A stretch of 64,000 nucleotides of DNA from a virus. Positions 1 to 64,000 of this stretch are shown one piece after another. The notes below the pieces were generated by a model. That model saw nothing but the letters and a program-made list of their open reading frames with translations, had not been told where the DNA came from and searched no databases. Location: positions 1-64,000 of the IMG/VR virus record IMGVR_UViG_3300044653_000068; one strand, given 5' to 3'. Positions within the stretch are counted from its first letter, which is position 1, and each line of letters opens with the position of its first letter. Both the position numbers and the translations under genes were made by a program.

Positions 1-28
1 GCAGATAACCGGGTTGCTCCGGCTCGTC
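1..28 (-). ncRNA. Y RNA-like unit, 5' part only (truncated by window edge)
   Basis: Minus strand GACGAGCCGGAGCAACCCGGTTATC matches the GAGCCGGA...GGTTATC 5' motif of the other units. Confidence 0.6.
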
Positions 29-85
29 TCACAGGGGACGGTTATTCAGTTGTGCCTCCCCGGGGATGTCCGGGAAGTGTTAGGG

Positions 86-236
86 CGCGGAGGGCATAAA
101 GGCGCTCCCGATTGGGGGGGGGGGGGACCGCTGCTCTGCCTGGCTGAGCTACCCGAATGTGGGTGGACACCCGGGACGGGATTTGAACCCGCGACCTGCG
201 GTTTAACAGGTAATCGGAAGACTCCGGCTCTCCGCG
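86..236 (-). ncRNA. YrlA-like Y RNA with circularly permuted tRNA domain
   Basis: Terminal stem CGCGGAGAGCCGGA/UUAUGCCCUCCGCG. Order inside is T-arm (GCGGG-UUCAAAU-CCCGU), loop-closed acceptor-like stem, then D-arm (UAGCUCAGCCAGGCAGAGC), closed by ACCGC/GCGGU. C13 loop. Confidence 0.8.
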
Positions 237-250
237 ACGCTATGGAGTTG

Positions 251-1300
251 TCAGGCGGCGGTGAAAGTGATCGAGGCCTTGGGGCTGCCGGGGTCGTTCC
301 ACCGCACGGTCACGGTGTAGACAGCGCCCTTGACGAGCGCCCCGTAGAACACCGCGTTCGTGGTGACGACCTTGGTGTCCATCAGCACGCCGTTCTTGAA
401 GATCGACGTTGACCAGGCAGCGCCGGCGACATCGCACGGCATCTTCCAGGACAGGTCCTCACGGGAGGGAGTGGTGGCGTCCGCGCTGGCGGTCAGGCCG
501 GCCGGGGCGGTAGTTGACGCCTGGTGGTTGCCCGTGATGCCAGTGCAGGCCGGCGGCGGGGTAACCGTGCTCACCAGGTTCGTGCCGTCCACGGAAGTGA
601 CGTAGCCGGTCTGCGTGGCGGAGGTGTCCCCGACTCCGATCCACGCCCAGACCAGCGGGTTGGTGTCGCCGTCCGGGTTGGTTGCGAAGTCCGCCTTGAC
701 CTGCGCCATGGTGATGGCGCACGTGCCGGCGGGGATCACGGTCGCGTTCTGCCCGGTCCACGTGCAGTCAACGCCGACAGCGGCCGCGTTCGTGTTGTTG
801 ACCGCGCCCATCGCGAGCTTGTTGGTGCCATCGTAGGCCGGGGTATCGCTCGCGCCGTGGTCCAGGAACACAGCCGACCCGCCCGGGAACCCGAGGAAGG
901 TGTCGGAGGCGCTGGTGTCAACGTAGAGGTTGTACCCCTCCAGGCCCGACCCGACGATGGCCGGCGCCACGAACTGCCCGTCCTTGTTGAACAGGTCGTG
1001 CAGGCGGCCCAGCGGGACGACGATGCCGGAGTCAGCGCCTGCGCCCGCGCTCAGGTCCACGCCGTTCGCGCCGAGCGTCTGGCTGGCGTCCGGATAGCCG
1101 AGGGGCGCGTTGCTGAACTCATTGCTAGCGGAGACGCTCGCGCTGCTGGCGGCGAACTGGTAGTCGCCGTTCTGCGCGAAGGTGGCCGCGCTGGCGGTCC
1201 CGCCCGCAAGGGCGGACGCACCGCCGGCCGTGAGAAGCAGCCCTGTGATGACGGCGACCGCGCGGATCGCCCCGGTGAAGCGCTTAGTGAAGTCAGTCAT
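251..1300 (-). CDS. Secreted protein of unknown function, possible FN3-like C-terminal domain
   Basis: 349 aa, N-terminal signal peptide with AxA site, high GC3. Confidence 0.75.
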   Translation of the reverse strand: MTDFTKRFTGAIRAVAVITGLLLTAGGASALAGGTASAATFAQNGDYQFAASSASVSASNEFSNAPLGYPDASQTLGANGVDLSAGAGADSGIVVPLGRLHDLFNKDGQFVAPAIVGSGLEGYNLYVDTSASDTFLGFPGGSAVFLDHGASDTPAYDGTNKLAMGAVNNTNAAAVGVDCTWTGQNATVIPAGTCAITMAQVKADFATNPDGDTNPLVWAWIGVGDTSATQTGYVTSVDGTNLVSTVTPPPACTGITGNHQASTTAPAGLTASADATTPSREDLSWKMPCDVAGAAWSTSIFKNGVLMDTKVVTTNAVFYGALVKGAVYTVTVRWNDPGSPKASITFTAA

Positions 1301-1343
1301 GCGGTAGAACCTAGCCTCTCGTTACGCGGATGTCCTGCGGTTA

Positions 1344-1446
1344 GGAGGGGGCATAAATCGGCGGCGCACTTCCCCCGCCTGCGCGGAGGTCATCCCAAGG
1401 AGATCCTTGGCTGGGGTGATAAGCGCCGGGCCGTCCGGCTCCCTTT
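1344..1446 (-). ncRNA. Y RNA-like unit without clear tRNA arms
   Basis: GGGAGCCGGA...GCUUAUC...UUAUGCCCCC terminal stem motif. Confidence 0.65.
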
Positions 1447-1453
1447 TACTAGA

Positions 1454-1527
1454 ACGCGGGCATAAGAATTGCGGTCGCCGGGGTTGCCTTTACAAGAGAT
1501 AACCCGGCTGTTGGGTCCGGCTCGCGC
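1454..1527 (-). ncRNA. Short Y RNA-like unit (YrlB-like, no tRNA domain)
   Basis: GCGCGAGCCGGA...GGUUAUC...UUAUGCCCGCGU. Confidence 0.65.
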
Positions 1528-1546
1528 GCTGTGCAGTTGTGGAGAA

Positions 1547-1673
1547 CGCGGGGGGCATAAGGCGCGACCTGGGCGCCTCCCTTGCGGAAGACTCTGCCAA
1601 TAGACCTGAGCGGGTTTAGCGCTCCGGCCTGGTATCGAACCAGGATAACCAGATCCACATCCGGCTCCCCGCG
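1547..1673 (-). ncRNA. YrlA-like Y RNA
   Basis: CGCGGGGAGCCGGA/UUAUGCCCCCCGCG stem; T-arm CUGG-UUCGAUA-CCAG precedes a loop-closed stem and a D-loop remnant (UGGCAGAG). Confidence 0.7.
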
Positions 1674-1696
1674 ATGTTCATGAAGTTGTCGGGCTG

Positions 1697-1823
1697 GGCG
1701 GGGGCATATGTGAGGCACCTGGGTTTTCGCGCGCTACCGTTACGCCAACGCCCTCACGGGCTCCCGGAGTTGAACCGGTCCTCGACCTCCGCAGGGTAAC
1801 CAGACGCCAGTCCGGCTCCCGCG
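1697..1823 (-). ncRNA. YrlA-like Y RNA
   Basis: GCGGGAGCCGGA/AUAUGCCCCCGC stem; T-arm CCGG-UUCAACU-CCGG followed by D-arm UGGCGUAACGGUAGCGC (permuted order). Confidence 0.72.
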
Positions 1824-1870
1824 CTCTGCTTCGTAACCTACCGCACGATGTCGGCTCCCTGTCAAATTCG

Positions 1871-2206
1871 TTACGCCCGGCCGACCTGACCCTGCCGGCC
1901 GGCCCTCAGCGTGTTCGCTGACTCGAACCGGGTGAACATGTACTTGTCGAAGTGAACGCCGAGGCCGCAGTCCGTATTCCCGGGAAGTTCGGTGCAGCTC
2001 ACGCGAATTCTCGCGCCGTCCACGGGGCGCATGATCACGGACACCGCACCGCACCGCCGCTCAGGGTAGACGTACAGGGTCGTGGCCGCCGCCTGGCACA
2101 TCACGCACAAGACGTGGTGCGCCCTGCCTGCGGGCATCCCCGGGTAGTCCCGCAGGCAGCCGCAGCTCAGCCGCCAGGTCCTCGTGGCGTGATGCGTTCT
2201 GGGCAC
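1871..2206 (-). CDS. Small Cys/His-rich hypothetical protein, possibly zinc-binding
   Basis: LSCGC, CxxC and further Cys/His; directly follows the radical SAM gene. Confidence 0.55.
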   Translation of the reverse strand: MPRTHHATRTWRLSCGCLRDYPGMPAGRAHHVLCVMCQAAATTLYVYPERRCGAVSVIMRPVDGARIRVSCTELPGNTDCGLGVHFDKYMFTRFESANTLRAGRQGQVGRA

Positions 2207-2239
2207 ACCCCGAGGATATCGTTACCCCAGCTCACACCC

Positions 2240-3997
2240 TTACCGCATGCCGTGCGGCCCGCAGACCAGGTTAGGGCCGCAGATGAAGTCCGGCTTGCAC
2301 GTGGTCTCCGGTTCAGGCTTAGGCTCAGGCTCGGGATCGGGGTCCGGCCCGGCCATGACGAGAGCGGGCTCGTCAGCAGCGCCCCAGTCAGGGCGGCAGG
2401 ACTGGTACGGCCCGCACACCAGGTTCGGCCCGCAGTCGCTGTAGGGGCCGCACGGCCTGCACGCCGTCGTCGGCGCGTCGTCGTCCAGCTCCAGGGTGTT
2501 CCCCGGCACGCAGTAGGACGGCCCGCACACGTGATCAGGCCTGCACGCGTCATCCGTGATCGCCATCTCGTCCGGACGGCACGACTCATTGGACGGCCGG
2601 CAGTCACTCGGGCCGCAGTCCGGTCCGCACGGCGAGCACGCGGTCACGGCCACGGCCGGCCTCGGCATACACGAATTGGGCGCGCACCAGACAGTGGGGC
2701 CGCAGGGATCGCCCGGCGAGCACGCGGTCACGGGCTTGACGGGGCGGCAGTCGTACGGGGAGCAGTCCTCGTGGGTGTCCGGGTAGCACGCGTCGGGCGG
2801 GCAGACGCTCATCACGTCCTTCGGCGCGCACGCGTAGGCCGGCCCGCACGCGAAGTCCGGACGGCACAGGTCCTCCGCGAGCGCCTTGTTCGGCGTGCAG
2901 TGCGGCGCGCAGACCCCGATGAAGTCCGGGCCGCAGATCGCGTCCTCGGCGGCGACCCGGCGCGGGCCCATGTCGTCGGGGTTGCAGGCCTCTTCCGGCG
3001 CGCAGTCCCCGGCGTTCGCCACGCTGGGCTTGCAGGGGATGTCCGGCCCGCAGGCGTCGGGGAAGCAGCCGGGCGACACCTCGCCGACGCTGGTCTCCCC
3101 GGCCACGGCGCTCCGGGACGGCTTGCAGGTGGAAGGCCCGCAGTACGGCGCGCAGATCGGCATGCAGTCAGCTGTCTTGGGAACGCAGGGACCGTCAGGC
3201 CCGCAATTGCCGTTAGGCACGCAGGAGTCGTACGCGTGACCCCGCCAGTTCGGGATGACCGACGCCTGGCTCCGGACCTCCTCGATGTGCTCCCCGAGGG
3301 GGGCCTCGTGCACGTTCCCGGCCTTCATCCACCGGGTGAGCGGGCACGGGGTGACGCTGCCATCAGGCAGGATGGCCGCGCGGCCGGCGCCGCAGTTGCC
3401 GCAGCCCTGCGTCGGGTCGCAGGTGGTGCCGCGCCCGAACTCGCGGAGGTGATCGCCGCCGATGTCGGTGACGCCCATCTCCCTCAGCAGGGCGATGCCC
3501 TCGGAGTACCGCTGGCCGGGGACCAGCCCGTCGATGACGCCGGCCCGCAGCGGGATGCCGTACATCACGGCCTTGGCGATGTTCGCCTTCGTCTGCCGCC
3601 AGGTGTCGCGCTGGGCGATGGCCTTGTGCTGCTCCCGGTCGTCGGTGTACCAGCTGGTGGCCAGGCGGACGCCCGGGGTGCGCAGCAGCTCCCACGTGGC
3701 GGCCGAGACCGCGACCAGGTTGCTGAACACCTCGGCTTCCATGCCGATGGCGAGGGCGTGCCGGACGAGGCGGGGCAGGTCCGGGTTGAGGGTGGGCTCA
3801 CCGCCGATGAAGCAGACGAACCGGGCGCCGAGCGCTCGCGCGTCGTCGAGGACCTTCTCCCAGTCCTCCGCCGTCATGTCGCCGTGATCGCCCTCGGGGC
3901 TGGAGCCCGCGTAACAGTGAACGCACTCAAGCTGGCACTTGCCGGTGAGTTCGACCCAGATGGACCGCACCGGCCTCTGGAGAATTGCAGTGGACAT
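2240..3997 (-). CDS. Radical SAM protein with Twitch/SPASM-like domain and fused poly-CxP tail
   Basis: CQLECVHC (CxxxCxxC), GGEP, CGNC...ILPDGSVTPC; C-terminal ~330 aa has 42 CxP motifs; SD GAAGGGA upstream. Confidence 0.93.
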   Translation of the reverse strand: MSTAILQRPVRSIWVELTGKCQLECVHCYAGSSPEGDHGDMTAEDWEKVLDDARALGARFVCFIGGEPTLNPDLPRLVRHALAIGMEAEVFSNLVAVSAATWELLRTPGVRLATSWYTDDREQHKAIAQRDTWRQTKANIAKAVMYGIPLRAGVIDGLVPGQRYSEGIALLREMGVTDIGGDHLREFGRGTTCDPTQGCGNCGAGRAAILPDGSVTPCPLTRWMKAGNVHEAPLGEHIEEVRSQASVIPNWRGHAYDSCVPNGNCGPDGPCVPKTADCMPICAPYCGPSTCKPSRSAVAGETSVGEVSPGCFPDACGPDIPCKPSVANAGDCAPEEACNPDDMGPRRVAAEDAICGPDFIGVCAPHCTPNKALAEDLCRPDFACGPAYACAPKDVMSVCPPDACYPDTHEDCSPYDCRPVKPVTACSPGDPCGPTVWCAPNSCMPRPAVAVTACSPCGPDCGPSDCRPSNESCRPDEMAITDDACRPDHVCGPSYCVPGNTLELDDDAPTTACRPCGPYSDCGPNLVCGPYQSCRPDWGAADEPALVMAGPDPDPEPEPKPEPETTCKPDFICGPNLVCGPHGMR

Positions 3998-4009
3998 CTG
4001 ACTTCCCTT

Positions 4010-4294
4010 CTACGCGGACCGGTTCTCGCGGTCCCGCAGCTCGCTCAGCTTGTCGGCCGGGATGCTGCTGAGGTGCCACCACTTATGACCTGACGGCTCC
4101 TCGCACTCGTAAACGTGCATCGCCTGGCCGGGGTGATTTACCCTACCCGACCGCTTGGCCTCCTCGCGCGATAGATAGCACTGCTTGCCGCACGTCCGGC
4201 AGACCTTGTGGGCCATGTACGGCGACCATCCGTCTGTGTCCCGGGTCTTGCGCCTGTGAGCGCGCCCCCGGCTCCGTCCCTTGCTACTGGGCAC
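4010..4294 (-). CDS. Small basic zinc-binding protein
   Basis: CxxCGK...YEC...WHLSS pattern typical of small actinophage proteins. Confidence 0.6.
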   Translation of the reverse strand: MPSSKGRSRGRAHRRKTRDTDGWSPYMAHKVCRTCGKQCYLSREEAKRSGRVNHPGQAMHVYECEEPSGHKWWHLSSIPADKLSELRDRENRSA

Positions 4295-4889
4295 GCGGCG
4301 GCCCGTCGAACGGCGAGGTCGTGGTGACGACGGTGTTCTCCGGGGGGCTCAGCCTGGCGGCGGCCTGGCGGCTCCTGATCGTCTCCGCCTCCAGGTCGAT
4401 CTTCACGCGGGTGCGCGCGGCGACGAGAGGGTGACGGGTAAAGCTCAGCTCGTTATCCTGCGCGCTCTCACCGCTCTCGCTCCAGTTAGTCGAGCCGCCG
4501 AACATGTCCAGGCTGTCGATGACCCCGGATTTGAGGTGGACGATCGCGTTCTTCTCGCTGCGCCCGATGACCACGGAGTTGCTCGGGTAGGCCATCGTCT
4601 TCAGCAGGGCGGCTTCGTGCTTGCCGGCGGCCTGGGTGGAGTCGAGCACCAGCAGAACGTACACCTTCTCGTCCTGGAGCTTGCGCAGGATCGCAGCGGC
4701 CAGAGCGTCGTCGTCGAACCCGAACATCGAGACCACCAGCGACTCGGTTGCGGAATTGATCAGCTCGACGAGCGCCCCGTGCAGGTTGTCCTGGGGGGCG
4801 TAGAGGGTGAGATGATCCTCGACCGGGTAGCCGGGGGGGAAGGGGCGGGCTGCGTACGTGGCAAGGGCCGAAAACTTAGCGAGCGACAT
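4284..4889 (-). CDS. Phospholipase D-family (single HKD) nuclease/phosphodiesterase
   Basis: HLKSGVID (HxKxxxxD) and GSTNWS...DNEL. Confidence 0.85.
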   Translation of the reverse strand: MSLAKFSALATYAARPFPPGYPVEDHLTLYAPQDNLHGALVELINSATESLVVSMFGFDDDALAAAILRKLQDEKVYVLLVLDSTQAAGKHEAALLKTMAYPSNSVVIGRSEKNAIVHLKSGVIDSLDMFGGSTNWSESGESAQDNELSFTRHPLVAARTRVKIDLEAETIRSRQAAARLSPPENTVVTTTSPFDGPPRAQ

Positions 4890-4982
4890 GATCTTGATCT
4901 TACCCAGCGGGGAATTGCCGTACCAGGAGCGTGGTTAGGATGAGGCATGCCGAACAGGTCCCTACGAAAGGAACACCGACTG

Positions 4983-5561
4983 ATGTCACGCAATAAGAAG
5001 CGCAAGGACAGGGCCCCGACGAGGATCTATCACGAACAGGCCCTCGCAGTGGTGCCCGAGCCCCCCATCACGCACGTGAACACCCAGGTGCTGCACGACA
5101 AGAACGCTTCGGTGGTGAACGTCCAGCTCGCCAAGCGCACGCATAACCACTTCGACCCGCCGGAGTACGAGTACAAGGCGTCGGGCTCGGCCAAGCGGGA
5201 GCGCGGGGATGTTCACGATGAGACCACGGGCGAGCTGCTGGCCCTGTCCCGCGCCTTCCTCGACCTGTCCCGGCAGCTGGAGGGCGAGGCCCGGAAGCGT
5301 GTGAGGACGGCTGCCGAGGCCGAGGACGCCAGGAAGCGCCGGACACTGAAGAAGGTGCTGAGGGCGGCCGAGCCGCAGAGGCACCGGACCCTGGAGGAGT
5401 GGCAGGAGATCCAGCGCGACCGACAGCAGGCGCAGAACCTGGACTACGGCCCGGTGGCCACGGAGTTCTTCGGAAGGCTCCCGGCGCACCCGGATCACGA
5501 CAGCGCTCGCGCCTACACGCCGCGTCACGCGGACGGCAAGCACCCGGACGGAACGCGGTAA
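4983..5561 (+). CDS. DUF1876/Rv2632c-like protein
   Basis: ASGSAKRERGDVHDETTGELLALSRAF motif; SD AAGGAA. Confidence 0.65.
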   Translation: MSRNKKRKDRAPTRIYHEQALAVVPEPPITHVNTQVLHDKNASVVNVQLAKRTHNHFDPPEYEYKASGSAKRERGDVHDETTGELLALSRAFLDLSRQLEGEARKRVRTAAEAEDARKRRTLKKVLRAAEPQRHRTLEEWQEIQRDRQQAQNLDYGPVATEFFGRLPAHPDHDSARAYTPRHADGKHPDGTR

Positions 5562-5641
5562 GGGTGTGATCGCACGTCACAGACGGTTCCTGTAGCCTGG
5601 TCTGGTGGGACTACCTCCTATCAGGGCAGGGGCCGTCTAAG

Positions 5642-6709
5642 GTGGACGTGCTGAACATCGCGCTCGCGATCAGCACGGCCCTCGGCTCCGCTGGTACCGT
5701 AGCGTATTACAGGGAAACGCACAGTGACGGCGTACGGGTTAAGCGCGCGGCGGAGACCAGGGCGATCGTGGATGCGGCGCTGGCTCCCGTCCTGGTCGAT
5801 CTTCAGGCTATTCGCGCCCAGTACGCCGCTGACAACTCGCAGACGCCGCTGGTCATAAAGACCGTGCTGTCCGAGGCGCTGGAGCCGATGCGAGATCAGA
5901 TCAGCACGCTTAACACCAAAATTGAGCCATTGTGGACGGCGTTGATCAACATGGGAATCAACCAGACCAACGTCCTGCACCAGCCTGACCCGCGCAGAAC
6001 CGAGATCGACGGGCTGCTGGAGGAACTTCAGGACGAGCTTGTGAACGGCCACCTGATGTCCCAGCCTGACTACACCCGGTTGCGCGAGTTCCTGAACAAG
6101 ATCAAGGTCTGGGAGCCGGGAACGGACATCGGCTTCCCCGTGCTGCCGGCCGAGCCCACCTCGGCGGCTATACTCCTGAGTGTGATGGGACTGTCCCGGC
6201 AGCGTCGCAGTCAGGAGCGGTTAGGCATGAGCGCGTCCACACCAGACCCCGGTGGACTACCCGAGCATGAGACTCGTGAGGTGAAAAGCGTGTCTGACGG
6301 AAATGGCGAGCGCGGCCCGCAGGGCGAGCGCGGCCCGAAGGGCGACAAGGGCGAGCCCGGTCCGTCCGTGCTTAACAAGCTCGCCGAGCAGCAGGTGTCC
6401 CGGCTCATCGCGGCGAAGACCATGCCGAGGTGGTGGGGCTACGCGCTGATCACGGGTCTCGTCGTGCTGACGGCGGTCGTGATCATCCTCGCCGCGTGGG
6501 TGCTGCCCGCGCTGAACAATAACACCATCAGCGACAGGTCGTACGTCAACAAAGTCGTACAGCACGAGTGCGCGGCCTTGAAGCAGGTCGCCGCCAGCCT
6601 CCCGTCATCACCGCCCTCCGACCCGGCGGCGAACCCGTCGCGCGTGACCAACTACCAGACCTACCTGGCGATCACGTCCTGGGCGCGCAGCGACGGATGC
6701 CCGGCGTGA
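5642..6709 (+). CDS. Membrane protein; probably two genes (5642-6223 and 6227-6709, the second with collagen-like GXY repeats and a TM helix)
   Basis: N-terminal TM segment; internal SD AGGAG before ATG 6227; GERGPQGERGPKGDKGEPG. Confidence 0.65.
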   Translation: MDVLNIALAISTALGSAGTVAYYRETHSDGVRVKRAAETRAIVDAALAPVLVDLQAIRAQYAADNSQTPLVIKTVLSEALEPMRDQISTLNTKIEPLWTALINMGINQTNVLHQPDPRRTEIDGLLEELQDELVNGHLMSQPDYTRLREFLNKIKVWEPGTDIGFPVLPAEPTSAAILLSVMGLSRQRRSQERLGMSASTPDPGGLPEHETREVKSVSDGNGERGPQGERGPKGDKGEPGPSVLNKLAEQQVSRLIAAKTMPRWWGYALITGLVVLTAVVIILAAWVLPALNNNTISDRSYVNKVVQHECAALKQVAASLPSSPPSDPAANPSRVTNYQTYLAITSWARSDGCPA

Positions 6710-8998: not shown

Positions 8999-11581
8999 TT
9001 ACGTGGTGGAGTAAACGCTGCCGGACAGGTCAATGTACAGCGTGCTCGTACCCGCCGGGTACGGGTCCGCCCAGATAACGCCCGACGCGTTGACCTGCAC
9101 GCAGGCCCTGGTCCCGGCGGACGCGCCCTTGACGACGAGATCAGCCCCCGACCCGTACCCGGCGGGGCGGTACGGCGCCGGCAGCGGGTTCCCCGAGTTA
9201 AGCGACGTGGCCGTGGTGAATGCCGTCGCCGCCTGGGCGATCCCGTCGAGCTGCACGTTGCCGTCCGGCAGGAGGCGGTACCGGGGAACCGCGAACCCGG
9301 TGATGACCGCCCAGCCGGCGTCCATCGAAATGGGGTGCCAGATCTCCGGGGCGTAGGCGCCGGGCGTCGTCTCCGTGGGGTTGAACGCCGTGGCCGGGCC
9401 GGTGTAGCCCTCCGCGAACTTGTTGCCGGCCGCGTCGGTGGTCGCGTACGGCTGCACCTGGCTCACGGGGGTGACCGCCGAGTTCGGGACGGTGATCACG
9501 ATGCCGCCGCCGGCGCCGCTGGACCCCAGCTGGACGCTCGTGCCGACGCCCTGGGCCATGACCAGCGTCAGGTACGGGGCCTGGGAGTTGCCGAACGCGT
9601 CCGCCGCCCCGGGGCCGTAGATCGCGGAGTAGAAGTCCGACCCGGTGGGGGCGTTGTAGGCGTCGATGGTCGGGGTGTTGTTCGGCCCGATGAGGAAGGC
9701 GGTGACCGAGCCCTCCTGGAGCCCGGCGCCGATGCCGCTCTCGGTGATGTCGTACGTGACGGTGCCCGCCCCGGGCGGGATGAGGACCGCCGCCACGTTG
9801 TTGCCGGCGTAGGCCGCCGTGTACGTCGGGGGAATGGAGGCGTCGTTGGTGTAGTACACCTCCAGGACCGATTCCTTGGGGTTGGTGGGGTAGGCGTTGG
9901 TGACCGTGAGGAACACCTGGCTGACGGTCCACTTGCCCCCTTCCAGCGTCGCCGGCAGCCCCTCCGGCAGCAGCATCACCGAGAACTTGCTGCCCGTCGC
10001 CGTGTCGGAGGCGGCCCCGCCCGCGTAGAGCACGGTGTTGAGGGCGCTGTTCGGGTTGGACTGCTGGGCGGTGTTGTACTGGCCTCCCGCGCCGCTGGCC
10101 GCGTCGGCTCCGTAGTAGGTCATGGCGCTCGTGAACGGGACGGTGATCCCGGACAGCGGCGGCGGGGTGACGGTGGGGCTGGCGGGCTGGATGGCCGCCC
10201 CCGTGGCGGTGGCGAGGCCCGCGTTGGCGGTGACTACCGAGGCGCCCGGAATGAGGCCGGCCATGATGCCGAACCAGTAGCCCGCGCTCGTGCTGGTGCC
10301 GGTCTGGTTGCCGGTGGCCCCGGCCGCCGCCGACTCGTCGTCGGCCAGCATCATCGTCGCGTTGCCGGACTGCGGCCCGTTGGTGACCTGGCTGGTGTAC
10401 CCGGACGGCGGGGTGATCGCGTAGCCGGCGCCGCCGTCGCCGTTCTCCACCCCGGCGAACCACAGCGCCCACCCGGCGGCCGGCATGGTGATCCCGCTGT
10501 TGGTGAACGACGTGTACTCGCCGCCGGCGTTCCCGGGCGAGCCAACGGTAATCGTCGGCGCCGCCCCGGCCACCGTGGCGATGGTCGCGGTGACCGCCGC
10601 CCCGCCGAGGTTGGTGATCGTGAACGACGTGCCCTCGGTGCCATCGGCCAGGCGGTACAGCAGGCAGCCGATTCCCTCGTTGTCGAGCGGGCTGACGGTG
10701 AACCCGGTGCAGGCGGGGGTGCTCATGCCGACGCCCCACAGGGCGATCATGATCCAGTCGCCGGCCGCCGTCCCGGCCTGCTTGCTGAGCGTGAACGACG
10801 TGACCGCGCCGGGGGACTGCACGACGTTAGGCGTGGCGCGGTACGACAGGACGCCCGTGCCTCCGCCCCCGCCCCCGCCGCCCCCGCCGCCTCCGCCGCC
10901 GCCGCTGCCCGGCACCCAGCCGTACACGTAATCGACCATGATGGGGTTGTTGTAGGAGGAGGGGCCGCCGCCCTGGGTCCCGTTGTTCGGCAGGATGGAC
11001 CAGCCGCCGCCGGCGTCGTCAGTGGCCCACGGGGCGTGGACGAGAACGCCGTCCCAGTAGAACGAGAGCTGGGTCGCCCCCCGGACCATGGTGTAGGTAT
11101 GCCAGCTGTTACACCAGTTCCCCGGCGGGTTGTACGGGCCGGACTGCTGCTCGCCGCCGTTCTCGTAGTGGTAGTTGACGTCGATGCCCGACCCGTTGGT
11201 CTCAACGCAGTCGCCCTCGCCGTTGTCCGGCCAGTCCTGCCCGCTGCCGAAGTAGCCGCCCCAGTTGTACGGCTGGCTGGCGCTCTCGCCTGGCACCCAC
11301 ATCCGCGCCTCGACGCAGCCGCCCACCGGCATGTCCCACCCGTTGACTCCCGCGCCGTCGCTGGGGCTGGAGCTGATGTACGCGCCCTCGGTGTACGACG
11401 CCACGGTCAGGTACAGATAGCCGTTCGCGACGGTCGTGCAGGACTGCGTGCCCAGGCAGCCGGTGCCGTTGATGCCGTTGCCGTTGAGGTAGGCCCACCG
11501 GGTGAGGTCGAGGTAGCCGAGGTTGAAGTCGTCCTGGAACACCAGGTCCCAGGTGCCGGGGGGCCCGTTCGGGTTAGGCAC
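8999..11581 (-). CDS. Tail/receptor-binding protein with N-terminal GH16-like domain
   Basis: WDLVFQDDFN...WPDNGEGDCVE (ExDxxE)...WHTY...FYWDG...MVDYV; poly-Gly linker; C-terminal tail-fibre-like YRLLPDGNVQL...LPAPYRP. Confidence 0.8.
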   Translation of the reverse strand: MPNPNGPPGTWDLVFQDDFNLGYLDLTRWAYLNGNGINGTGCLGTQSCTTVANGYLYLTVASYTEGAYISSSPSDGAGVNGWDMPVGGCVEARMWVPGESASQPYNWGGYFGSGQDWPDNGEGDCVETNGSGIDVNYHYENGGEQQSGPYNPPGNWCNSWHTYTMVRGATQLSFYWDGVLVHAPWATDDAGGGWSILPNNGTQGGGPSSYNNPIMVDYVYGWVPGSGGGGGGGGGGGGGGGTGVLSYRATPNVVQSPGAVTSFTLSKQAGTAAGDWIMIALWGVGMSTPACTGFTVSPLDNEGIGCLLYRLADGTEGTSFTITNLGGAAVTATIATVAGAAPTITVGSPGNAGGEYTSFTNSGITMPAAGWALWFAGVENGDGGAGYAITPPSGYTSQVTNGPQSGNATMMLADDESAAAGATGNQTGTSTSAGYWFGIMAGLIPGASVVTANAGLATATGAAIQPASPTVTPPPLSGITVPFTSAMTYYGADAASGAGGQYNTAQQSNPNSALNTVLYAGGAASDTATGSKFSVMLLPEGLPATLEGGKWTVSQVFLTVTNAYPTNPKESVLEVYYTNDASIPPTYTAAYAGNNVAAVLIPPGAGTVTYDITESGIGAGLQEGSVTAFLIGPNNTPTIDAYNAPTGSDFYSAIYGPGAADAFGNSQAPYLTLVMAQGVGTSVQLGSSGAGGGIVITVPNSAVTPVSQVQPYATTDAAGNKFAEGYTGPATAFNPTETTPGAYAPEIWHPISMDAGWAVITGFAVPRYRLLPDGNVQLDGIAQAATAFTTATSLNSGNPLPAPYRPAGYGSGADLVVKGASAGTRACVQVNASGVIWADPYPAGTSTLYIDLSGSVYSTT

Positions 11582-58824: not shown

Positions 58825-58839
58825 GCGCGCACCCTACGG

Positions 58840-58910
58840 TGGAGCTGGAGGGAATCGAACCCTCTGCAGCCTGCCTGCCAGGCGGGCCCGCTACCTCAGC
58901 GATCAGCCCC
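58840..58910 (-). tRNA. tRNA-Ala(GGC), short D-loop
   Basis: Acceptor GGGGCUG/CAGCUCC with G3:U70; loop CUGGCAG; T-arm GAGGG-UUCGAUU-CCCUC. Confidence 0.8.
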
Positions 58911-59956: not shown

Positions 59957-59978
59957 CTGGAACGCTGCCGGGGCCCGG

Positions 59979-60052
59979 TGGCGGGAGCCGGATTTGAACC
60001 GGCGACCTGAGCGTTATGAGCGCCCCGCGCTGCCGAACTGCGCCATCCCGCT
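59979..60052 (-). tRNA. tRNA with CAT anticodon (Met/fMet/Ile2 unresolved)
   Basis: D-arm GCGCAGUUCGGCAGCGC; loop CUCAUAA; T-arm GCCGG-UUCAAAU-CCGGC; A1:C72 mismatch. Confidence 0.88.
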
Positions 60053-61814: not shown

Positions 61815-62103
61815 GCGCGCAGCCTACCTGCTTCTCTCCCGCCTAACAACTGGAGAAACCTCCTCCGCTACCGCAAAGTTCAGTAACCGAACTTAATTTT
61901 GTATTTTGCCTGGTCAGCAGCGTGGACTCACTTCGCGAAATCGAAAAAACAGGCGAGTGACCGGCTTAGGTCGCGGGGTTTTTCGAGCTGGTTGGGGATT
62001 TCGGTCAGCAGATCGTCCCCGGTCAAATTTCGCTAAAAAACTCATTCGAATTATAGGCGCATATAATTTTTCGAATTCTTTAATGGTAGCTGACACTGGG
62101 GGT

Positions 62104-62192
62104 AATGATTATGCTAAGTGCAATGATTGCAATGAGTATAATGATTGCAATGGTGGATGGGTGCAATGCGTATAATGATTGCAATCATTGCA
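62104..62192. repeat. AATGATTGCAAT repeats including palindrome AATGATTGCAATCATT
   Basis: Copies at ~62122, 62140 and 62174. Confidence 0.8.
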
Positions 62193-62233
62193 CTAGACAC
62201 ACTCATACAACTAGTTGTGTGCAGCCAGCGCAC

Positions 62234-62345
62234 ACTGACATGTGTCAGTGACAGTGGTCAGTGACACGTGTCAGTGACAGTGGTCAGTGAATACAGATTC
62301 AATGACTCGCGTCAGTGACAGTGGTCAGTGACACTCGTCAGTGTG
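62234..62345. repeat. GTCAGTGACAGTGGTCAGTGA direct repeats
   Basis: Three 21-bp copies at ~62244, 62270 and 62311 plus partial copies. Confidence 0.85.
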
Positions 62346-64000
62346 GCAGTAGTCAGGCAGTAGCACACAGTTAGTTGCACGTGCACACAGCTGGTAATAC
62401 CACACTGCATTGGTAGGTTGCCTGATTACACCGTTGCACTGCTGGTCACAGCAACGCTTCGAATTAGCTTTGTAGCAACGGCAGAATACGATTGGTCTAG
62501 CAAGCACGCTAACGAATTAGGCCTCTGACCAGCACGAACACCGAAACGGACATTTGGGCGAAAATCCCCGCCAGGATTCCCGCGATAGACAACCGCTTGG
62601 AAGGCCTTGCACCCGTCAGATTGGCTGTTTGACGCCTTAGACGCGTTTCCGCTGGTCAGACACCGAATTCGCTGGTCGAAATGAACCGTTTAATTCCGCT
62701 TTGTCACCGAATGCCCGAATCTCCGAGCCGGCGCTATATGACTAGTCATGCTGTGACCGGTCACATAGCCGTTCTGCGACCCGAATAGCCGCTAGCTGAC
62801 AAACGTGTCCTGGCAGGCCGGTAAAGCCTGCCTAGCGGGCTGTGAAGTGGCTTCACGCGGCATTCCGAGTCTTGCCTCTCACGCGCGTACGCGTACGCGT
62901 ACGCGCATCGCGCGCCGCGCCCGGCCGGACTGTGAAGTCAGTAAACGGACATTCGGTGCACCAATAGGACAAACTACCCCAGTTTCATGAAATTTTATCA
63001 TGACATTTCACGATATGTCCCGTTTTGTCCTCTCGAATAAGATTCGCACATGCCCGGAATGCCCGAAATGCCCGAATCCGGAAAATGCCTGTGACCTGCA
63101 CCGTTACCTAGCCGTTATTCTAATTAAGCCTCTGACCTTGAGTCTGACAGGATGCACCTAGTTGTTCGTCCGCCCGGTCCCCCGGGAAGCTTCCGGGGAT
63201 ATCACAGCCCGCTTAGGCGGGTGGGGGCATGCGGTCCGCGCTTTGGCGGATGAACGGGCAACCGACAACCTAGCTCGCGATAGATGCGGTCGGCTGAACG
63301 GGTTTGCGCCTAGGCGCAATGCTTCCCCTAGTAGGCCGGCGCGTGAGCGGCAATAACCCCTAGGGACGCCCTTAGGGCACTACCGCGCGAGATAACTACA
63401 TGCACACGCACACGGGAAACGATGGCCGTATGGCCAAAGAGTCGCGCGTGAGTCACCGATACCGGATTGGCCTGCCTAGGTTGGCTGCAAGTCTCGTCAC
63501 GGTTCAAATCGGCTTTGTGCGCAGTGCCTTTACCAAGGTGCAAACTCTGTGTTCTGAAGATGGTTTTTCAGATCACGGGAACGTGAGTCAATTGGTATCG
63601 GCCGACCAAACCAGTGATCACGGTTGCTGACACGGTGCGCATGGCACGCGTTAGGGATACGGCTTTAGCCAAAGGTTCCCAGTATGAGGTTTCGTGCATG
63701 GGGTTCCTGTCAGCCATCGATGGAAACATGGCAGGGGTACGCGGTTACCGACATCCGCCTATGGCTTATCTGAGCTGGATTCACGCCACGGTCACGGGAC
63801 ACGATGCGCATTGATGCGCGGGAAACGTCCTAGCGACAGTCAGCTTTGCAACTGACATGGTGCAGAAATTCCGGGATAGCTAGCAATCGATCGGCCGCCC
63901 AATAAGCGGTCAAGCTTTACCTGTTTTACCGCTAGGAAACCCGAACCCGGAGAAATCACTAGCTAATAGCACTCCGGCAACGACCTAGCGCGTTTAACCT

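Follow-up and report, generated by a model that had tools for sequence, protein, structure and literature searches.

The window analysed here covers bases 1-64000 of a virus record in IMG/VR (IMGVR_UViG_3300044653_000068; 115,256 bp, CheckV completeness estimate 98 %). On its minus strand, at 2240..3997, lies a gene (stop codon at 2240-2242) whose 585-amino acid product, P0001, joins a radical S-adenosylmethionine (SAM) enzyme to a C-terminal tail of Cys-x-Pro (CxP) repeats. The protein can be divided, with all parts on the minus strand, into a radical SAM core (residues 16-154; 3536..3952), a twitch-like auxiliary-cluster segment (residues 193-218; 3344..3421), the helical end of the enzyme domain with the junction to the tail (residues 219-258; 3224..3343) and the tail itself (residues 259-585; 2243..3223). 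The original prediction, made from the DNA sequence alone, described an enzyme running without a stop into a tail of about 330 residues, and this is borne out by an open frame of 585 uninterrupted codons and a tail of 327 residues. The GC content at third codon positions (GC3) is 0.82-0.98 over the entire open reading frame 2240-3997, tail included, and the frame is coding. Three metagenomic homologs (P0002-P0004), with enzyme domains 91-93 % identical to that of P0001, share the fused enzyme-tail architecture, and a frameshift or assembly artefact can be excluded as the source of the fusion since they show it independently.

The complete radical SAM core that had been proposed from its CxxxCxxC and GGEP motifs is supported by the placement of these motifs at residues 21-28 (C21/C25/C28; 3914-3937, minus strand) and 65-68, respectively, and by a match to PF04055 (E 6e-18; 65.9 bits against a gathering cut-off of 29.5). 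The CxxxCxxC and GGE columns are invariant across 40 homologs, and AlphaFold models residues 4-253, and with them the whole core, at a predicted local distance difference test (pLDDT) score above 90. Judged by cluster motif, SAM-binding motif and Pfam score, P0001 belongs to the radical SAM superfamily. The twitch-like element reads C199-x2-C202-x10-G213-x4-C218; its three cysteines are invariant in the 40 homologs, and no fourth auxiliary-site cysteine is invariant in the family. A SPASM domain is recognised by seven or eight cysteines in the order Cx9-15Gx4C, gap, Cx2Cx5Cx3C, gap, C. In P0001 the first of these elements occurs alone (C202-x10-G213-x4-C218), Pfam gives no match to PF13186 (SPASM), and where Pfam does match SPASM, in short homologs, mostly no more than profile positions 1 to 43-53 of 67 are covered. 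The canonical CxxCx5Cx3C was found only in an outgroup sequence (L149; 29 % identical), at the position where the CxP tail starts in the family. The enzyme domain can thus be described as twitch-like, since only the first SPASM half is present and the second element is confined to the outgroup, and the earlier wording of a Twitch/SPASM-like segment is fair for this first, twitch-like half, a full SPASM being absent. In enzymes of the twitch type (SkfB, BtrN and MoaA), the SPASM-like beta-hairpin is shortened and carries a single auxiliary cluster, with three to four cysteines. C199, C202 and C218 lie on a confidently modelled hairpin, a predicted cluster site to which the tail could contribute a fourth ligand. 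Residues 219-258 carry the G-N-V...L motif typical after a SPASM/twitch hairpin and are modelled with helices at 238-245 and 253-258, the pLDDT dropping past about residue 253.

Among structural matches found with Foldseek, the thioether synthase SkfB is the best (E 2e-14), followed by SuiB, BlsE, PqqE, DesII, CteB and an anaerobic sulfatase-maturating enzyme (anSME), with viperin and MoaA ranking below the peptide maturases. An intact radical SAM enzyme of peptide-maturase type thus occupies the N-terminal 255 residues. An N-terminal RRE, the recognition element for precursors of ribosomally synthesised and post-translationally modified peptides, is not possible, since the radical SAM motif begins at residue 21. 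Pfam, NCBIfam, PHROGs and PADLOC returned generic radical SAM matches only, with no curated family beyond 'radical SAM'. The match to the prokaryotic viperin model (pVip) of PADLOC is limited to the generic core (residues 14-105; E 3e-10), and a pVip identity was rejected on the absence of a full-length match to that model.

The tail (residues 259-585) contains exactly 42 cysteines, as had been counted by hand, and all of them have a proline at +2 (42/42), as does C193 in the enzyme part. When a gap of at least nine residues between cysteines is taken to separate clusters, eleven clusters are obtained on the minus strand, holding, from the N-terminal side, 7, 3, 2, 3, 3, 4, 4, 5, 3, 5 and 3 CxP units (3119-3223, 3026-3067, 2978-3004, 2891-2935, 2822-2866, 2741-2803, 2663-2722, 2573-2638, 2504-2545, 2390-2461 and 2255-2299, respectively). 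The linkers between them are free of Cys and made up of Ala, acidic residues and Pro, so that the predicted arrangement of about eleven clusters of two to seven motifs and the linkers quoted with it proved correct. Cysteine makes up 12.8 % of the tail, and in 100,000 shuffles of its residues C.P motifs numbered 7.6 on average and never more than 18, against the 42 observed (binomial p ~6e-32). The tail of P0001 is modelled by AlphaFold at a pLDDT of 30-45, that of a canonical member with seven CxP units, folded with a 69-row alignment, at 37-56, and confident packing of the tail on the enzyme is absent in both models. With no confident fold in either of the two models, the tail is predicted to be a flexible chain.

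Between P0001 and P0002-P0004, the tail residues other than Cys and Pro are 44-72 % identical, with 159-196 gap columns, while the Cys and the Pro at +2 are retained at 97-100 %. These alignments indicate that the tails change fast, by substitution and by gain and loss of modules, while keeping their Cys and Pro. The modules best conserved in the three homologs are residues 399-419 (2741-2803; 20/21 identical) and the last module with the C-terminus (residues 567-585; 2243..2299, minus strand; 17/19 identical), which comprises three CxP units and ends in HGMR. At the DNA level the tail contains repeats with a period of 18 that are 60-78 % alike, and a recent low-complexity expansion was ruled out, repeats at this level of identity being old.

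P0001 is one representative of a large family. In a search of 5.8 billion proteins, 168 or more homologs of the admitted length were recovered, and when each species was represented by one genome, the same enzyme was located at no fewer than 526 loci, whose hosts are nearly all Actinomycetota, with a few Thermoactinomycetaceae and other metagenome-assembled genomes. A metagenome scan gave 80 family loci, 18 lie on viral or prophage contigs in IMG/VR, one locus adjoins a prophage integrase, and the ESM Atlas holds clusters of the family, without a name, of 865, 117 and 68 members. Collection of homologs of the SAM domain, which had been proposed as a check on the original prediction, showed that they retain CxP tails with varying copy number. 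Across 201 distinct tails, 1989/2056 cysteines (96.7 %) have Pro at +2, with between 0 and 56 CxP units per protein, most often seven or eight; P0001 is among about a dozen strongly expanded members. Around the motif, position +1 is free and +3 is Asp in 18 % of cases; at +4, Cys accounts for 30 % and Arg for only 4 %. Successive cysteines are most commonly spaced by 4 residues, then by 6, 5 and 7, while among approximately 1850 intervals spacings of 1 or 2 (CC, CxC) occur nine times and a spacing of 3 occurs 58 times. The CxP rule is also obeyed by the low-GC members from Laceyella and Thermoactinomyces (GC3 ~0.35), and GC bias is thus not its cause. A compositional artefact or wrong reading frame for P0001 was ruled out on the combined grounds of the high GC3, the shuffle maximum of 18 C.P against 42 and the presence of CxP in these low-GC members.

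In a tree of the enzyme domain, the clade of P0001 (support of 99 in the Shimodaira-Hasegawa-like approximate likelihood ratio test, SH-aLRT) also holds bacterial members with five to nine CxP units. Long tails occur in several separate clades (P0001-3, P0005, L101, P0024, P0116, P0098 and P0105), and at least one expanded-tail copy lies on a virus record. The tree thus indicates that tail expansion arose repeatedly and independently, which suggests that the number of units matters biologically. A megablast search against a public phage collection recovered no phage related to this virus, and the only known-phage carriers of a homolog are two identical Mycobacterium abscessus prophages. Gene 78 of Mycobacterium phage prophi68-1, annotated as an 'oxidoreductase', is a member of the family (L001:2071-2955) and adjoins the integrase. 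It has an in-frame TGA after the enzyme domain, where the deposited annotation ends, followed by 31 codons with five intact CxP motifs; the TGA could be a recent nonsense mutation or a site of read-through or recoding. Other variants include a protein with an N-terminal HATPase_c (anti-sigma-type kinase) domain ahead of the radical SAM enzyme and CxP tail (P0018), and a subfamily with c13-type tails (L006, L010 and L092), in which five CxP units precede a conserved non-CxP end (...SPxRxVRYxNPxxxxTDC) and a 116-150-aa protein without known family is always encoded downstream.

The bacterial family loci, for which gene calls are heuristic, lie in variable regions among WhiJ-type XRE/DUF5753/DUF397 regulators and can be grouped by the gene downstream of the enzyme. 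An ABC-type ATPase (mad3/AriA/GajA-like) together with an APH-like kinase (HGDLHxxN and DWE motifs) is encoded at 41 loci, and one of the two at 11 more. Models of the mad3, AriA, GajA and PtuA ATPases match this partner, the best of them with E 9e-20, and in P0084 a radical SAM enzyme, a CxP tail and an AAA/ABC-type ATPase are fused in a single protein. A PIMT-like methyltransferase (PAMT) is the partner at 16 bacterial or prophage loci, and a 270-aa family here termed c8, with HxDxxxxN and VDW motifs, at 15. The c8 proteins have no Pfam, NCBIfam or PADLOC match and align weakly with the APH-like set (hhalign E 7e-4), and an alignment of eight of them (L011, L052, L070, L073, L081, L099, L114 and L115) shows the kinase-like motifs F-V-K, HxDxNPxN and VDW; on this sequence evidence c8 is probably an unrecognised family with a kinase fold. 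Parsimony on the enzyme tree requires 15 partner changes, compared to a mean of 43 when partners are shuffled, which indicates that the type of tail and the gene downstream both vary together with the enzyme clade. The clade of P0001 is of the c8 type, with kinase-like partners in its bacterial members, and is sister to the PAMT-linked clade.

The PAMT partner matches TIGR04188 ('ATP-grasp peptide maturase system methyltransferase') over its full length (E 7e-82) and also the FxLD-system methyltransferase model. Methyltransferases of the TIGR04188/FxLD type act on an Asp in a constrained peptide loop. An Asp-Gly or Asn-Gly pair stands within a few residues before a CxP cysteine in 14/16 PAMT-linked tails as opposed to 5/78 others (Fisher p 7e-11, uncorrected for shared ancestry), and the CxP tail is thus probably a PAMT substrate. 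A published study reported 249 two-gene clusters of a radical SAM enzyme and a PAMT with no neighbouring putative precursor genes, and showed that zinc may take the place of a covalent ring in closing the hairpin of a PAMT substrate, the type II pamtides being an example (PMC10787088). The CxP tail is an obvious candidate for the substrate of these orphan radical SAM-PAMT pairs.

Taken together, these features lead us to propose, tentatively, that the CxP tail is an in-cis (tethered) substrate of its own radical SAM enzyme, most likely for thioether formation, in which case P0001 would be a self-contained enzyme-plus-substrate protein. The three-Cys auxiliary site would probably leave one iron free for a substrate thiolate, as does the auxiliary cluster of the sactipeptide synthase CteB, and neither a leader peptide nor an RRE would be needed since the tail is tethered to the enzyme. 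Each CxP unit would reach an active site, that of its own enzyme domain or of a neighbouring one, where its Cys would be modified by radical chemistry. The likeliest product would be a short-range thioether, either to the Pro at +2 or to the variable residue at +1 or +3, with the Pro then serving as a turn or recognition element; oxidation of the Cys beta-carbon, as in anaerobic sulfatase maturases, would be less likely. In the bacterial relatives the partners, either the kinase-like protein with or without the ABC-type ATPase or the PAMT, would then act on the same tail, while the phage copy would have descended from the kinase-partner clade, lost its partner and expanded its tail about five-fold.

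That the tail is the enzyme's own substrate had already been suggested in the original prediction, and this proposal gains from the family-wide occurrence of CxP tails, their variable copy number and their substrate-like features; the modification itself we infer, and the proposal as a whole is given slightly less than even confidence. Most tail cysteines are not obligatory cluster ligands, since the number of CxP units runs from 0-3 up to 56, and the strict three-residue CxP rule looks like an enzyme recognition rule. The missing RRE, the lack of a confident fold for the tail, the fast turnover of residues between the cysteines, the SkfB match and the co-variation with partners all favour a substrate over a structural SPASM remnant.

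Several observations weigh against a tethered substrate. The start of the CxP region coincides exactly with the place expected for the second, Cys-rich SPASM half, and some tail cysteines may thus be cluster ligands; in a few homologs (P0045 and P0058) the Pfam SPASM profile aligns into the tail. The statistics on the partner tree and on the D/N-G association are not fully corrected for shared ancestry, and the latter association does not show that the radical SAM enzyme cross-links the tail, as a closed hairpin is all that PAMT substrates require and zinc suffices for it (PMC10787088). A defence-like ATPase partner does not fit a natural-product pathway well. None of the kinase-like, ATPase, c8 and PAMT partners is encoded in the whole 115-kb phage genome (for PAMT, the best tblastn match has an E of 0.38), and no protease or exporter adjoins the P0001 gene that would free the modules as the small library of cross-linked cores suggested in the original prediction. 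Free CxP peptides adjacent to the enzyme, which had been envisaged in the original prediction, were not found in this family: no open reading frame for such a peptide was found in 180 family loci, where the finds were frameshifted or stop-interrupted radical SAM genes, and the sole split form is that of the M. abscessus prophage with its in-frame TGA. A search of the 5.8 billion proteins with the tail alone, considering shorter proteins only, likewise returned a single contig-end fragment (P0121), which has the same C-terminus as P0001.

In the boldest extension of the tethered-substrate proposal, which implies a post-translational modification not seen before, the radical SAM enzyme would turn every CxP triplet in the tail it carries into a thioether ring of three residues. 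The family, spread over hundreds of actinobacterial species, would then constitute a new class of proteins that are modified at many sites by an enzyme to which they are tethered; it would have been expanded by phages to arrays of 40-56 units for some role in infection, and would supply the substrate for the 249 orphan radical SAM-PAMT clusters. In this complete form it is unlikely to hold.

A serious rival is that the tail binds metal or Fe-S clusters as an expanded descendant of the second SPASM half, with the real substrate elsewhere. The tail could bind further Fe-S clusters, which would serve the enzyme as an electron wire or as a reservoir, or bind Zn or Cu like a metallothionein, and these forms, even taken jointly, are considered rather unlikely, if not by far. 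The start of the tail at the site of CxxCx5Cx3C in L149 and the reach of the SPASM profile into P0045 and P0058 are as expected of such a descent, and the common tail of seven CxP units together with the three enzyme cysteines gives ten cysteines, enough for two auxiliary clusters. The Cys content of 12.8 % suits metal binding, and folds that depend on a metal can score low in AlphaFold. Furthermore, a Cys hairpin kept closed by zinc has been proven to serve a PAMT as substrate (PMC10787088). However, copy numbers of 0-56, and of two to seven per module in the phage, fit fixed four-Cys sites poorly, CC and CxC are nearly absent (9 of ~1850 intervals), the residues between the cysteines turn over fast and whole modules have been gained or lost among enzymes that are 92 % identical, and packing of the tail on the enzyme was not modelled confidently in either model. 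Nor is a requirement for Pro at +2 known to us from any cluster or metallothionein motif. A metallothionein-like protein in the strict sense was rejected, as the spacings of 4, 6 and 5 that predominate depart from the dense CC, CxC and CxxC pattern of that class. The metal-binding alternative is weakened by these data and remains a serious rival.

The ATPase partners raise the alternative of a conflict system, in defence or counter-defence, in which the bacterial radical SAM enzyme would work together with the defence-type ATPase and the kinase, the tail would be a regulatory or decoy element (a pseudo-substrate or a docking platform for these partners), and the partner-less, tail-expanded phage copy a sponge that titrates the host system; the two versions together are regarded as improbable. 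Along with the matches of the ATPase to mad3, AriA, GajA and PtuA models (up to E 9e-20), this would account for the placement of loci among WhiJ-type XRE/DUF5753/DUF397 regulators in variable regions and of 18 on IMG/VR viral or prophage contigs, the position of one locus next to a prophage integrase, the absence of any partner in the phage, the fast evolution of the tails with several origins of long ones, and the DrmC-like PLD protein encoded upstream in the phage. A decoy would not require an intact enzyme, however, and every catalytic motif is retained. The PAMT partners are enzymes of peptide-modification pathways. PADLOC models match the radical SAM enzyme in its generic core only (pVip, residues 14-105), and a link to phage resistance is conjectural.

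Least probable is that the tail is a substrate whose cysteines are oxidised to C-alpha-formylglycine, anSME-like, so that reactive aldehydes would line the tail in place of thioether rings. The Cys and the Pro at +2 also occur in the sulfatase motif C/S-x-P-x-R, anSME is itself a radical SAM-SPASM enzyme, the fold matches include anSMEcpe in complex with a Cys peptide (4k39; E 6e-10) and twitch enzymes such as BtrN are dehydrogenases, but there is no rule of Arg at +4 in the tails (Cys 30 %, Arg 4 %), no anSME family is among the 25 NCBIfam matches listed, P0001 lacks the full SPASM with two complete clusters of anSME, and SkfB and SuiB outscore anSME in the fold search. The sulfatase motif as such was rejected on the missing Arg at +4.

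The components of a tethered substrate are known separately, as radical SAM thioethers at repeated Cys motifs, as enzyme-precursor fusion in borosins and as the orphan radical SAM-PAMT pair. The orphan clusters reported by Lee et al. (Adv Sci 2023; PMC10787088) belong to the same family, with 16 of the present loci having a PAMT after the radical SAM-CxP gene. No substrate was found for those clusters and the CxP tail goes unmentioned in that work, while the phage gene is without a PAMT and falls in the sister, kinase-partner clade. The radical SAM enzymes SkfB (the best fold match), CteB, PapB (freyrasin) and CrpC (CrpA) have a twitch or SPASM domain and join a Cys sulfur to a carbon of a nearby residue. 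Their target is often a short motif present in many copies, and freyrasin contains six CxxxD motifs. The radical SAM-SPASM enzyme CrpC installs ranthionine links on CrpA, which has ten 17-residue Cys repeats (PMC13692751). The strict C-x-P motif of the P0001 family is not known in these systems. Moreover, CrpC and the sactipeptide and ranthipeptide maturases engage a separate substrate through an RRE or N-terminal domains, whereas P0001 has neither the N-terminal RRE nor the separate precursor of such maturases and has its Cys region fused.

Fusion of enzyme and precursor removes the need for leader recognition in borosins. Borosins of the OphMA type resemble P0001, as proposed here, in that the core peptide is a C-terminal extension of its own modifying enzyme. 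The borosin enzymes are, however, SAM-dependent backbone N-methyltransferases, usually with one core, as compared to the radical SAM domain and eleven Cys clusters of P0001; the fused architecture is present in P0001, and modification of its tail we infer. Similarly, anSME/AtsB are radical SAM enzymes with a fold match to P0001 that act on a Cys with Pro at +2 (C/S-x-P-x-R), and P0001 differs from them in the absence of the Arg at +4 and of a full SPASM and in having its candidate substrate fused and repeated. Triceptides (a class named in PMC10787088) have a three-residue motif that is repeated in the precursor and ring-closed by one radical SAM/SPASM enzyme; they differ in using an aromatic-ring donor instead of a thiol and in having a separate precursor. 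Full-text literature searches returned no paper describing CxP-tailed radical SAM enzymes. What is added here is the phage copy with 42 units and no partner gene, statistics for the whole family, two partner classes (kinase/ATPase and c8) and the repeated, independent expansions.

If the tail is a substrate, P0001 would be, to our knowledge, the first radical SAM enzyme that carries its own, and it would follow a simple rule, by which every Cys needs a Pro two residues on. The family is large, with its 526 or more loci in species genomes, and the CxP tail offers a testable answer to the published question of the target of the radical SAM-PAMT pairs. P0001 is a convenient test object, since one protein would yield 42 mass-spectrometry readouts.

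In the phage, the P0001 gene is the last of a three-gene unit on the minus strand, which encodes, in order, a PLD-like protein, a small Cys-containing protein and the radical SAM enzyme. The first gene (4284..4889, minus strand) specifies a 201-aa PLD-like (HKD) protein (PLDc_2, E 1e-11) that is weakly DrmC-like (PADLOC DrmC, E 1e-5), and overlaps by 11 nt with the second (4010..4294, minus strand), from which a gap of 12 nt leads to the start of the radical SAM gene. The 94-aa product of this second gene belongs to no Pfam family, matches PHROG 9124 of unknown function (E 3e-4) and appears zinc-ribbon-like by eye. A related phage fragment (L143) keeps the gene order, with 81 % and 82 % identity for the PLD-like and the 94-aa protein, respectively, and also retains next to the trio the divergent Rv2632c-like gene found here at 4947-5561 (plus strand). 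No Rfam match at gathering score was obtained for window positions 1-6000, and ARAGORN gave no tRNA there. Further along the window, the gene at 5642-6709 (plus strand) encodes a membrane-anchored protein that contains a short collagen-like stretch of G-x-y, and that at 8999-11581 (minus strand) a tail-region protein of 860 residues in which approximately 17 glycines follow one another. Towards the other end, positions 62001-64000, just past genes for tRNA-Ala (58838-58910) and tRNA-Met (59977-60052), have a GC content of 0.54 as compared to ~0.68 elsewhere.

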